From Octopus vulgaris (Eukaryota): a stretch of DNA of 64,000 nucleotides. Location of the stretch: positions 16,740,001-16,804,000 of the forward strand of contig OX597828.1 of NCBI GenBank assembly GCA_951406725.2, in the 5' to 3' direction. The position numbers and the translations under genes were made by a program. Of this stretch, positions 12,650 through 61,508 are shown in pieces (position 1 is the stretch's first letter; each line of letters begins with the position of its first letter). Under the pieces are notes generated by a model. That model searched no databases and was not told the DNA's origin. It saw nothing but the letters and a program-made list of their open reading frames with translations.

Positions 12650-13010
12650 TAACAAACTAAGGAAAGGAATTATTTCAAAGGGGTGTGTAAATCATTCAAT
12701 TCACTGGTGCCTCAGTTGAATACCACATAAATATGGGTACAATGCAAATAACAAGCAATGAAGAAAATAGAGAGATACAAATTACAATCCAAGAATTTAT
12801 TCATATTATAACATAATATACTATGAATAGAGCATAATATAAATTTACATAAAAACAATCATTAAAAAACCAATAGAGCCAACAATTTGTTTTGACTTAC
12901 ATGCATTATTCGATTTATAAATAGTTCACTTCCCTTATATAAGTCTCATCAAAACTATGGTTTAAAGATAGACGAAATTCCGTGTGAAAGGACGGCTGGA
13001 CGGAAAAAAA
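12650..13010 (-). mobile_element. Same pLTR-like family as 51231-51755, with degenerate HHR at 12877-12956
   Basis: Shares AACAAACTAAGGAAAGGAATT..TTCAAAGGGGTGTGT...CAGTTGAATACCACATAAAT. Minus strand reads AGTT-TTGATGA-GACTTATATA...TGTAAGTC-AAAACAAATTGT-T-GGCT. Confidence 0.7.
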
Positions 13011-13699
13011 TTAATTCAAATGCCTATGTATTATGAGCGTGAGCTTTAACTTTTCAACTACATAACATTTGCAATTAAAAAAAACAACAAAATTATAAAT
13101 CTATTTCAGTGTGTGTGTGTGGGGGGGGGGTGAGAATTATCTGAAGAAATTTTGCTTATAATTGTATTTTTTAAATTTAGTCACAGAGCCATCAGTTTTG
13201 AGGTAAGGAAGCGGAGTTGAAGATAAGTCGGTACCATCGACCTCATTATTTGACTGCTATTTTATTTTAGTTATTTTATCTATCTTGGAAAAACCATGGG
13301 CATCACGACCTGGAGTGTATTTGAAATCGGTACCGAAAATACTGGCAACAAATTTTACTGAAAATTTACTATATGTCGGACACACCTCACAATAATTTTC
13401 ATTTTCACTTTTCAACATCTCTCTCTCTCTCTCTCTCTCTTTCCCCCCTCTGCTAGTATGACGCCACCGCCACCGTCATCACCACTCTTCAACTTATACC
13501 CTTGCTTGTATCTGTGTCTTCCTCCCTTACCCATGGCCAAATACAATTCGTTCTTGTATTGCAATAAAATCTGTAACCTCCTATCTTTATCTTTAAATTG
13601 AAAAAAATCATTGCAGATTCTCTCAGCTACACATTGTATTCGTTTGTCTGGGTGCTATAACTAGTTATAATGGGTCTGACTGTTACAATGACCCAAGTC

Positions 13700-15503
13700 C
13701 CTTTTAGTGGCAATAGGAGTCAAACCGTATAAAAGCTATCAAATTTAGAAACTGAATCGGCGGAGTATAGGTTTTACATCTGTCAAAACAACTCTGGGTG
13801 TCCTGATCGAGCATAATATTGCGGTAAACGTTTTGCAATTTTGTAACGTTCAGTTCAAATTTAAAACTTCAAAACACTCAAGGAGCTTTTTAAAAAGCAA
13901 ATATCCAGACGCGGATTGCACTATTGAAAGATTACAAATAACACGTGCTCGATATGATAAGACAAAATTACAAATCTTCCACGCCTTGAATTCCGTTCGT
14001 CACCAACAGCAATTCTGGAATTTTTTGCTTGAAGAGATATCTATTTGTATCAAGGAAAAGTCCTCCGGTGGATTTCCAAACTGCGTTCTTTTAAATGGAC
14101 AGAACCGTGAGGTGAGTTGCTGAAATGTGTGCGAATGTCGTTGCCCACGAGTTACACGAAATGTCACCGCTTCTAATTCTTCATTATTTTTGAAGTTAAT
14201 GAATTGACTGATGTCACACCCATGAGGAAATTGGCTCTGTTTACCCGACAGATGCATGATGATGCCTCGAAGAAAGAGTTTCTGGTTGGCGAACCACTTC
14301 CTAATCACTTTTAAAGTTGCTGGTATTTTATATTTTGATTATAAATTGGAGTTAAACTTCCTGGGAGCTTTGCGCATCAGCTATGTTTGGTTACATCTTC
14401 TATTTTGCAGGTCTGATGAAAACAGTGTACCAAACGCCAAAATACTTACCACTGCATTAATCGTCAACATAAAATTGTTGCTTAGACTTTAACCGCAACA
14501 CTTCAAGTGGTCATAAGTAGAGTTTTTAAATCTTCGGACGAAACAAAGCTCTCATTCACTGGAATATCAAGTATTTCTGTAAGAAATTAAGAGTCGCGAA
14601 TCAAGTACTACTGTTTTCCCATGCTGCTGCACGCTGACAAAAGGTTATTATCATGTCTTAGAAAATTGCTATTTTCTTCCGAAAGAATAGAAACAATTTA
14701 GAAGAAAAATTGGTATGATATGAATTTCTTTTTGTCAAATGTATTCGGGTATTTCAATGAGCAGAAATTAGGAATTCTAAACAAACAGGTTGCAGTGACT
14801 TGGTAGGGTTAAGGCGTTTAAGAAACTGGTCTCAATTTGGAATGTTGAACTGATAAAGAATATTCCCTTTGATTTTCCCTGCTTGTAGGAAGGATCCGAG
14901 AGTAACCGGAAATCGATACATCGTCGAAAGCAGGAATTGGCAATCATCTGTCACAGCTTGAGGATAAGTTTGAGAAGCACATATGAAGGAAACTCTTGAC
15001 GGCTGGATCCGGCAACTATTCTTATCGAACTTATGTGATACCGAAAATTTTAAAGATGGGCTGCTGGATCTACAAAGTAACGAAGTAAGCAACGATCTTT
15101 CCTGATTCTTTTCCTTAACAGAACTTGGTTTAAAACAGCTAAATCCATAGCATTAAATAACATGTAGAAATTACTCTCGAATCAATAATTCCGTTTCCAA
15201 AAGTTTACCTCAACGAAATTGATTTCTATAATGCTGCATATAAAAATAAAAACTAAAAAATAAACAATAAAGCGAGGTACAGAATGGAATGAAGAATGGT
15301 TCATGACAAAAACATGAGATTGGCAGTCATATATACTAAACGAATAATCTAGATTAAACACTATCAAAAAACCGGTGAAATACAATAAATAATAATATTA
15401 TGTCCCTTAAATATTACAATCTCAAGTCCTGGGACTCACAGGGTAGGTTACTCGGTTGCCAAGACGTATAAGTGACTAAGATCACAACATTATGCCCACC
15501 CTG
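13700..15503 (+). mobile_element. Degraded hAT (Charlie/Buster-like) transposon
   Basis: Ordered eroded motifs: FKTSKHSRSFLKSKYP (cf. KPSKLKRHLxTKHP), RTVR*VAEM, ELTDV, HCINRQHKIVA, LLHADKRLLS (cf. LLHTEVRWLS), FLSNVFGYFNE, HLSQLEDKF..WIRQLF..LLDLQS. Right TIR-like TGCCCACCCTG at 15493-15503. Confidence 0.7.
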
Positions 15504-15899
15504 AATAAATTTTTTGCTTGAAGAGATATCTATTTGTATCTAGGAAAAGTCCTCTGGTGGATTTCCAAACTGCGTTCTTTTAAATGGATAGAGCCGTGAG
15601 GTGAGTTGCTGAAATGAGTGCGGATGCCGTTGCTCACGAGTTTCACGAAATGTCACCGCTTCGAATTCTTCCATCGATCCATCGCAGAATTAATCATTTA
15701 GAATTGAGTGGACTAGAGCAATGTGAAACGAAATATTTTGCTCAAGAACGTAACGCACCACTTGGCTCGCGAATAGAAACGACGATCTCGCGACCGTTAG
15801 TGCACTACCGTAACCACTGTGGACGATGTGCCTTCACAGTGAAAGATAAGCAGTGATAAAAGAGTTATTAACTTTGTTCTCTTGTATTCTTTTTTTCTT

Positions 15900-59436: not shown

Positions 59437-59590
59437 AAGCGAGCTGGCAGAAACGTTAGCACGCCGGGCGAAATGCTTTGCGGTATTTCGTCTGTCTTTA
59501 CGTCCTGAGTTCAAATTCCGACGAGGTCGACTTTGCCTTTCATCCTTTAGGGATCGATTAAGTAAGTACCAGCTGCGTACTGGGGTGGAT
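59437..59590 (+). mobile_element. SINE family C, 3'-truncated
   Basis: Nearly identical to 45115-45265. Further degenerate copies at ~1130-1310, 12520-12650, 60200-60460 and 60570-60770. Confidence 0.85.
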
Positions 59591-61288
59591 CTAGAAAAGA
59601 ATACAATAACAATAGCATTAGCAGAAACATCGCTTGTCAGATAGAAACCGAGCAAAACACTCATATTTAAGTTGATGATGGTAATGATGATGGTGATGAT
59701 GATGACAATGATGATAGCAATGACTATGACAACGACGATGACGCTGATTATAATAGTATTGATGATGATGACGAGGAGGAGGAGGTGGATGATACAGATT
59801 ATGATGGTGATGAAATGATTTCCAATATAGAATTTTCTGACTTCACTCAGAATAGTCCGGCATAGCATTCACGATGTCGACTGTTATTTTGTTGTTATCT
59901 CAACAGAGCTGCATTCGTTGCTGTTTTCACTGATGCTGCTGCTGTTGCAGCTGTCCCTGCTAGTGCTGCTGCTACTGCTAACACAACACTCGATGAACGG
60001 TATTGATAAAGTTTAATGGTCTCCAGCTATTTTCAGAGATATTTTCAAACTTGTTCATTTCACAGTTTGGAGAAAGCAATTATTTTTTTCCCCTTCACTT
60101 TATTTTTCTTCTTGTAAATTCTAAACAGTATCCATCGTTTCTGCTGCTCTCAGCACTTTAAATATTGATTTCTAAACATCGCCATACGACCAATTGTTTT
60201 TTTGTTTAGCGAGGGATGTATTCGATTCAATCGACCCCAGTATATAACTGGTACTTACTATTTTTTTTTTATCGATCACGAAAAGATTACAGCCTAATGA
60301 ATCAACCTCGACTACAACTGGAATCAAAACTATGAACAAAGGTGGCTTTGCAGAATTGGACAAGTTGTCCTAGAAAATGTTTCGATGTGTTTAGTTACGT
60401 TTTTATGGTTCTGCTTGATCTGAGTTCAAATCTTGTGGAATCCAATTTTGTCTTTCACACGGCTTGTATTCATCTCCGTTTCAATTTGCCAAAGTATGCA
60501 TCTTATAATTATCGCTAGTTATTAACTGCACATCCAGGTTGGTACTTGGCTACATAATTTCTTATGGGAGGGTAGCGAGCCGGCAGAATTGTTAGCAGAA
60601 ATGCTAAGGCGTATTTTGTTCATTTTTACATTCTAAGCTGAAATTCCGCTAAGGTCAACTTTGCCGTCGATCTTTTCGGGGTCGATAAAATATGTTGCAA
60701 AGTGGAGATATATTTAATTTGTCTTAGTCTCTATCCCGGAATTTCTAGTATGGTGGTAACATTTGAAACCAATATGTCGCCCATATTACTCTGTAGATAT
60801 CGCTGCCATCACAATGGTATATCTTAAATATACTCGGACTTAGCAGGGAGTGGCGGACCTAGAAATGATTTGGCCAGTTGTCTTTTAGAAGCTATAACAT
60901 ACGCAGCACTTGCATGCTTATCATTATTTTATTTCTGTAGTTATAGTGTCTTTGATTTTTCAACCCAGATGGCTGAGACGCCAAGTTAAAATCTGAGGCA
61001 TGGAAGCCGAAAACAGAAAGAGCAATAAGAAATACCACATGGCATATTGTTCGATGCTCCAACGATAATGCAAAAAACCATTTCTCTCTCTTAGCTATTT
61101 ATCATGTAAAGATAAAATCAAATATTTTGTTTCTGCATTTTGTTTCTCCCTCCTCCTCCCTGTGTGTGTGTGTGTGTGTGCGCGCGCGCGTGTATATATA
61201 TATATATATATATATATATATATATATATATATATATATATATATATATATATATATATATGTATATATAAATATATATATGTATATA

Positions 61289-61508
61289 TACAAAATTAAG
61301 AGGAATGACCACTAAAGTGGATGCCTAATATGCTAACCATAGACGTCGAATCGCCATTGCAACGAAGAATGTGTGCTCAAGAAAAATCTCAGCAAAACGT
61401 TTCGGTGAGATTTTTCTTGAGAACACTTTCTTCGTGGTAATGGCGATTTGACGTCTATGTTTAGCATATTAGGTGTCCACTTTAGTGATCATTCCACTTA
61501 ATTTTGTA
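61289..61508. repeat. 220-bp spacerless palindrome between (TA)n tracts
   Basis: Axis AAAC|GTTT at 61398/61399. 110-bp arms with about 12 mismatches. Confidence 0.9.

Follow-up and report, generated by a model that had tools for sequence, protein, structure and literature searches.

Hammerhead ribozyme motifs, Penelope-like element remnants, and microsatellites in a 64-kb window of the Octopus vulgaris genome

Here, we examined a 64,000-nucleotide stretch of the Octopus vulgaris genome (assembly GCA_951406725.2, contig OX597828.1, positions 16,740,001 to 16,804,000 of the forward strand; hereafter the window, numbered from its first letter), in which short non-coding cassettes with type I hammerhead ribozyme (HHR) motifs lie among abundant microsatellites and the remnants of two Penelope-like elements (PLEs). 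Simple repeats make up 17% of the window by mask, and Tandem Repeats Finder returned 129 rows. An earlier note on this DNA had listed about ten type I HHR motifs from five or more families and read them as a ribozyme-processed, retrozyme-like, non-autonomous system mobilized by PLEs. Five families (A, B, C at 54131, D at 49211, and H at 26082) were confirmed, and nine of the ten listed motifs are, by sequence, of the hammerhead type, leaving the one at 18741 unconfirmed (Table 1). We argue below that the cassettes are probably solo PLE ends rather than retrozymes.

Hammerhead motifs and Penelope-like elements in the window

Table 1. Cassettes, HHR motifs, and PLE remnants located in the window
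Feature	Position	Strand	Details
Family A copy A1, solo PLE 3′ end, decayed HHR	12652..13021	-	Core start 12952; predicted cut 12881; 52-nt stem-loop II
HHR core halves	18741..18775	-	Both present; stems I and III unpaired; unconfirmed; 18775 found by no descriptor
5′-truncated Hydra-clade PLE	25831..26925	-	Broken GIY-YIG endonuclease ~26518-26925, 3′ untranslated region, HHR; (CA)n both sides
Type I HHR of Hydra element (family H)	25955..26086	-	Core 26082 intact; 4-bp stem I; 3-bp stem III; 105-nt stem-loop II; predicted cut 25959; strict descriptor
Neptune-type PLE remnant	28378..28945	+	End of reverse-transcriptase thumb; CxxxxCxxC linker; GIY-YIG with CCHH
Family B copy B1	43533..43737	+	Minimal HHR core 43613; U6; 3′ end on (TA)n
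Distant family B relative B2	48465..48658	+	Minimal HHR 48530 (C4, A6; both sides of stem I changed); 3′ end on (TA)n
Family D cassette	48994..49244	-	Canonical minimal HHR, core 49211; palindromic stem III; predicted cut 49171; microsatellites on either side; strict descriptor
Family A head-to-head fold-back	51233..51749		A3 (-, HHR 3′ half) and A2 (+, core 51565, predicted cut 51637); (TA)n at both outer ends
Host dispersed repeat, internal (CA)n(TA)n	53792..54452	+	Filled by insert C; empty copy at 15907-16314
Family C insert	54069..54255	+	HHR core 54131; 4-bp stem III; in (TA)n of the dispersed repeat
Family B copy B3	57230..57569	+	Minimal HHR core 57398; U6 (57401); predicted cut 57425; no tract here; family 3′ end ~57563
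Family B copy B4, second subfamily	57980..58248	+	Core 58121; U6; 3′ end on (TACA)n
ACGT-centered fold-back	61294..61591		Center 61398; HHR-like half pointing inward on each arm; (TA)n both sides

Motif evidence came from a regular-expression search, site-by-site reading, and descriptor scans with shuffled controls (local dinucleotide shuffles, microsatellites kept in place, n = 40), and dispersed repeats within the window came from masked self-BLAST. Against these controls, which are optimistic because the descriptors were set after the motifs had been seen, a strict descriptor (type I core and all stems) matched at three loci, 26082(-), 49211(-), and 54131(+)/54122(-), giving 4 matches versus a mean of 0.12, a count that none of the 40 shuffles reached. 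Allowing one mismatch gave 8 matches versus 1.32 (1 of 40 shuffles as high), and two mismatches plus a short stem II gave 7 versus 2.55 (0 of 40). The comparison with dinucleotide-shuffled sequence that the earlier note had proposed thus came out in favor of hammerheads. Two of the eight one-mismatch matches, at 40771 and 48004, were rejected as probably chance, and six motifs rest on family alignments rather than on the strict descriptor.

Both GIY-YIG PLE remnants were confirmed by tblastn. No PLE reverse transcriptase (RT) core is left within the window. The endonuclease (EN) of the Hydra-clade remnant is homologous to proteins P0021-P0024, P0026, and P0027 (E 1e-8 to P0026 and P0027, full-length RT+EN proteins). 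Its full-length relatives P0024, P0025, and P0027 have the Hydra-clade motifs RWK, DKT, and CxCX5C, and the window copy breaks inside the linker, without RT. Hydra-clade PLEs (PMC8557442) resemble it in a C-terminal GIY-YIG domain without CCHH, CxH after the conserved E/N, an HHR near the 3′ end, and insertion at microsatellites, and they share a 3-4-bp stem III with family C. The claimed link between this remnant and an HHR also held, with the strict match at 26082 lying on the same strand as the EN, ~440 nt downstream of it and 128 nt from the 3′ tract. The first reading, which listed this motif at 25955, had only the 3′ half; 105 nt separate the 5′ half of the core from the downstream GAAA. 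Stem II is closed by a 12-bp helix (-13.4 kcal/mol) that 1 of 2000 random placements equaled. Hydra HHRs listed in PMC8557442 have a loop II of 3-10 nt, in contrast to the 105-nt stem-loop here, which might be a family trait or a later insertion.

The second remnant was classed as Neptune-type by motifs and similarity (67-72% identity to the RT+EN protein P0005, E 1e-32), and shares with Neptune-clade PLEs a CX2-5CxxC linker and a CCHH endonuclease C-terminal to the RT. It is flanked by (CA)n before (28174-28278) and (TA)n after (29032-29058). For the EN pieces, Pfam gave only a weak GIY-YIG match for P0002 (E 0.096) and nothing relevant for P0003 or P0004. Nine of 14 phmmer hits with P0003 were examined and eight short EN-like ones retained, P0007 being dropped as an unrelated repeat protein, and a word-based search found none. 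Eleven words taken from the window were absent from the PMC8557442 supplement, in which line breaks can hide a word, and families A, B, H, and E are therefore not tied to the Craig 2021 consensi.

Among the remaining families, A1 aligns with the family A fold-back at 75-81% identity (81% over 259 nt; self-BLAST). Its core, earlier listed at 12877, carries two substitutions and was recognized only through homology, and the 9-bp helix closing its stem II was matched in stability by 2.5% of 2000 random placements. A2 has an intact core, a bulged stem I, and a 53-nt stem-loop II whose closing helix does not stand out from chance (equaled by 40% of random placements), so that a stem-loop II of 52-53 nt is common to both family A motifs. 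Family C forms a 116-nt perfect palindrome (54069-54184) whose arms hold the 54131(+) and 54122(-) motifs and whose center lies 4-5 nt before the HHR core. The empty copy of its host repeat is 90-91% identical on both sides of the tract and has (TA)n without insert C, a single case. Several fold-backs had been claimed among the cassettes, and two listed cassettes, this palindrome and the family A pair, are indeed inverted pairs. In the ACGT-centered fold-back the arms are 88.6% alike (61294-61503), the center falls at a possible hammerhead cut, and each arm has A at position 3. The structure could have arisen tail to tail, with priming at a cleaved end, or simply by chance; its inward-facing halves may be the trace of HHR-cleaved 3′ ends that paired via a dimer stem III and served as primers.

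Family B and position 6 of its core

Family B HHRs carry the extra base at 9/10.1, G10.1-C11.1, palindromic 15.2-16.2, and stem I pairing, i.e., the PLE minimal type. The pseudo-long terminal repeats (pLTRs) of metazoan PLEs (Cervera and de la Pena 2014, PMC4209133) are alike in a short stem I, the extra base, G10.1-C11.1, and a palindromic stem III, as well as in many solo copies per family and opposite-strand pairs. The 43613 and 58121 motifs each have one further core change, and 57398 and 58121 each have one stem II mismatch. Stem covariation, a check suggested in the earlier note, was found in stem I, where three of four pairs changed on both sides (11 cells versus 5.0 shuffled, 0/500), a count that leans on relatedness and does not extend to stem II, which was fixed by the search pattern.

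Abundance was assessed from contigs of four sequencing runs (including X1, X9, and X10) placed on 57230-58245 at 80% likeness, whose depth is not copy number and which cannot reveal RNA ends; X10 is RNA only by our guess and carries no information on expression. In line with the high copy number that had been proposed, family B was very abundant in all four runs, with a depth in X1 of 1-2 million versus ~45-55 on the unique flank, which would roughly correspond to a copy number of order 10^4. Depth in X1 declines gradually toward the 5′ side (2.3 million to 0.11 million), is still ~2,000 times the unique level at 57230, the edge of the stretch covered, forms a plateau of ~270 bp at 57300-57569, and drops to 0 after 57570. 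Among the 24 of 1457 rows listed, loose ends behind 57563 were (TA)n in X9 (32 records) and X10 (13), two of the four runs.

Relatives were collected by a metagenome pattern scan that left position 6 free (120 of ~150 loci taken, 99 distinct). The same minimal HHR was present in 120 loci, with a nearly identical motif and unalignable flanks, and in 2 of the 120 it lay ~240-300 nt downstream of a Neptune-type EN, the other 118 having no EN match. In these relatives, 3′ ends form two clusters, ~70-90 and 117-138 nt beyond the cut (n = 89), and 5′ ends are spread anywhere between 7 and 700 nt (n = 94), a pattern that fits the PLE ‘tail’ and truncation signature. Further, 27 of the 94 5′ ends fall 7-19 nt upstream of the hammerhead core, and inversions occur in 6 of 99 distinct contexts, five of them centered 3-9 nt before C3 (loci L022, L023, L046, L081, and L088), as is the window inversion at 54126. 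Together, these positions hint at reverse transcription ending at the 5′ strand of stem I.

The PLE consensus core is C3 U4 G5 A6 N7 G8 A9, from which family B departs with a majority core of CUGUNGA (A6U), U6 being present in three of four window copies and in most contigs. In each of the four runs, U6 is what the majority of loose ends at 58153 carry (224, 241, 130, and 38 records, with an agreement of 0.73-0.81), and positions 57401 and 58124 are absent from the 40 differing places listed (50 further rows being unlisted), whereas private changes at 57407, 58139, and 58143 are overruled by 96-99% of depth. A minority of family B with A6 may exist, and B2 has A6. Among the metagenome relatives, A6 occurs in 120/120 loci (99/99 distinct) and C4 in 46/99, so that U4C is ordinary and U6 is not. 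The U6 pattern had 0 matches among viral contigs. No report of a natural A6U hammerhead was found in searches of open-access text; one may exist outside that scope, in figures, in Repbase, in the supplementary files of PMC4209133 or the bioRxiv preprint cited below, or in work on variant PLE hammerheads published in RNA Biology in 2017. In the PMC4209133 text available, the only core change named is U3-A8. The closest natural case is an A6C hammerhead in phage Bcep176 (PMC3088659, PMC7151607), which works slowly with Mg2+ but is active with Mn2+. It is likewise changed at position 6, but to C rather than U and as one phage motif rather than a high-copy retroelement family.

Most simply, A6U would mark a weakened ribozyme that is dispensable to the element. 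Selection may also have acted, given that U6 is kept across the B3-like and B4-like subfamilies, which are 71% alike by self-BLAST. On a tentative reading that we consider doubtful, family B (~10^4 copies), having kept U at the near-invariant position 6 across two subfamilies ~25-30% apart along with its other core bases and stems, might be the first case of a natural A6U hammerhead maintained by selection, its activity turned down so that it works as a switch, dependent on protein or Mn2+, letting uncleaved RNA be reverse-transcribed. Family B offers a natural experiment, since its changed core occurs at very high abundance and A6 relatives are at hand for comparison (48530 in the window and 99 from metagenomes). 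If the U6 ribozyme is dead, cleavage would be dispensable in vivo, and if it is active or conditional, it would be a new natural core variant.

Microsatellites and the origin of the cassettes

For the 10 predicted cleavage sites, whose family members are not independent, RY (purine-pyrimidine) tracts were found downstream within 110, 150, 200, and 250 nt at 3, 6, 7, and 7 sites, against a background of 7, 11, 16, and 20% (P 0.03 to 0.0002, the latter at 200 nt), and upstream at 2, 2, 3, and 3 sites, which is not an enrichment. The enrichment check proposed earlier was therefore positive on the downstream side only, and the placement of the cassettes at (TA)n, (CA)n, or (TACA)n stands for seven of the ten. 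The view that the motifs are of PLE type and that their 3′ ends favor microsatellites is supported. Each of the nine supported HHRs lies whole inside its insert, and in seven the tract starts 90-180 nt past the cut.

With a probability of roughly 0.78, we read the cassettes as solo pLTRs, i.e., 3′ ends of several PLE families unrelated to one another, truncated on the 5′ side and in some cases inverted, inserted at (TA)n, (CA)n, or (TACA)n by inferred GIY-YIG action. Within the window, this is based on variable 5′ ends, the two head-to-head inversions, and one pair of filled and empty sites. Published work supplies the components: a microsatellite bias for Hydra, Neptune, and Naiad PLEs; HHRs close to the 3′ end in Hydra PLEs (PMC8557442); a hypothesis that the Neptune CX2-5CxxC linker is the source of that bias; palindromic head-to-head inversion junctions in PLEs (PMC3846280); the ascription of solo minimal HHRs to truncated PLEs; and PLE biochemistry in which reverse transcription begins at two internal positions ~100 nt beyond the HHR, extension proceeds on both strands, and mutation of the HHR does not abolish insertion in vitro (PMC11167929). 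By extension from PMC11167929, an RT-EN protein would nick AT-rich DNA and reverse transcription would begin inside uncleaved RNA ~100 nt downstream of the HHR. Early termination would leave a short HHR-bearing copy, and a fold-back would result where another cDNA, in inverted orientation, was joined to it through a short palindrome. Inserts could thus arise without need for HHR cleavage, and family B would have been amplified to very high copy number with its A6U core.

We acknowledge that several observations weigh against this reading. No tract abuts A1 (730 nt), 18775 (523 nt), or B3 (837 nt), and none of 79 metagenome relatives of family B had a microsatellite within 250 nt, so that targeting does not travel with the family-B HHR type. 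The published Hydra preference for (TA)n (PMC8557442), which is no absolute rule, is not seen in the Hydra-clade remnant, flanked as it is by (CA)n. No HHR was found at the Neptune remnant, whose 3′ untranslated region does not align to family B; its link to that family is indirect, via relatives; and an RT-EN partner for families A, B, C, and D was not found within the window. Rfam gave no match in the window at gathering score, no hammerhead among 150 of 246 weak matches listed, and none in three of three small regions. Folding z-scores of five motifs were unremarkable (-0.01 to -1.67). The dependence of the covariation count on relatedness belongs on the same side, as does a single depth bin, discussed below. 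With Rfam negative and folding z-scores weak, the argument for hammerheads is carried by the core and stems of the motifs, by their family structure, and by their context.

The same Rfam and folding results, along with descriptors tuned afterwards, speak for a chance origin of the motifs in AT-rich repeats. We regard this as most improbable overall, given the strict count that no shuffle reached, the near-identity of the family B motif to 120 metagenome motifs with unalignable flanks, and a position and orientation that match PLE HHRs, though it may hold for 18775 and 61398 alone. It is also unlikely that the microsatellites are tails added on insertion or grown later at element ends rather than targets. 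The 3′-sided enrichment and the varying tract type among family B copies would suit such tails, as would RY tracts already covering 8% of the window, but the (TA)n interrupted by insert C is already present in the empty copy of the host repeat, and tracts stand at both ends of the Hydra-clade remnant, the family A fold-back, and the ACGT-centered fold-back.

Retrozyme-like units, excised by the HHR, circularized, and copied by PLE enzymes, are quite improbable as well. HHRs are present, animal retrozymes have been proposed as PLE pLTR derivatives, a circular template would likewise leave an intact HHR within the insert, and the 61398 fold-back is centered on a possible cleavage site. Non-LTR retrozymes (PMC7229834; bioRxiv 10.64898/2026.07.22.740005) are also alike in being non-coding, with a type I HHR and a proposed PLE origin, but they are tandem 150-450-bp repeats giving circular RNAs, whereas the window cassettes are solo or inverted and mostly carry the minimal PLE type. 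Tandem Repeats Finder showed no HHR-bearing tandem unit in the window up to period 500, and no unit there has two HHRs in direct orientation. Units excised by the ribozyme would be expected to start or stop at the cut, or to be arrayed in tandem. Across the cut, however, the depth of family B does not shift lastingly (1.8 million at 57332-57365 versus 2.1 million at 57434-57467), the one bin at 57366-57399 that dips to 0.86 million probably reflecting divergence of the B3 copy. Since tandem units are absent from the window and the cassette ends lie away from the cleavage site, we conclude that these are most probably not retrozymes, and the processing part of the original proposal is not supported.

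The non-autonomous part is unproven, in that 5′-truncated ends of ordinary PLEs explain the cassettes. It might nevertheless apply to family B, perhaps to others, as a true SINE-like (short interspersed element-like) PLE derivative with its own short masters, mobilized in trans by a Neptune-type RT-EN, a possibility that we do not favor but that is compatible with most of what we propose. Its very high abundance, ~270-bp depth plateau, and lack of a linked coding remnant in all four window copies point this way, and trans-mobilization by pLTRs and non-autonomous PLEs has been described (PMC3846280). Depth that fades gradually toward the 5′ side, still ~2,000-fold at 57230, and same-HHR relatives linked to an EN in 2/120 loci argue the other way.

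Solo, 5′-truncated, or inverted pLTRs at microsatellites are known biology (PMC4209133, PMC8557442, PMC3846280). What stands out is the A6U core of an abundant family and the hammerheads with a long stem-loop II, of 52-105 nt in families A and H, unlike the minimal HHRs of PMC4209133. The long-loop motifs show that PLE hammerheads can escape both standard descriptors and Rfam. HHR mutants of PLEs insert in vitro, and some PLE clades lack the ribozyme.

Other fold-backs and repeats

Another fold-back family (51039-51205 and 43257-43347) has outer ends at or near (TA)n and no clear HHR, its 43257 copy lying head-to-head with B1 between two (TA)n tracts. A 95% palindrome at 48252-48440 has (TA)n at its center and on its left, with no HHR found. 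At 38358-38859, a short repeat occurs in nested direct and inverted copies (a 318-bp fold-back, 79%) beside microsatellites.

Two larger structures have inverted repeats. The sequence inside 46172-46891, whose ends are inverted (46172-46369 / 46693-46891, 74%), resembles a decayed Tc1/mariner transposase. At 39085-41144, an inverted repeat with an internal microsatellite (39122-39415 / 40399-40651, 93-95%) is followed by a 140-aa frame (40722-41144), which had nothing relevant in Pfam and which we take to resemble the C-terminus of a long interspersed element. The remaining repeats are 164-bp direct repeats at 14019-14182 and 15508-15671 (94% identity, 1.49 kb between), a ~150-bp dispersed repeat in a tandem cluster at 45105-45848, and a 37-bp minisatellite of 7.6 copies at 17069-17348.

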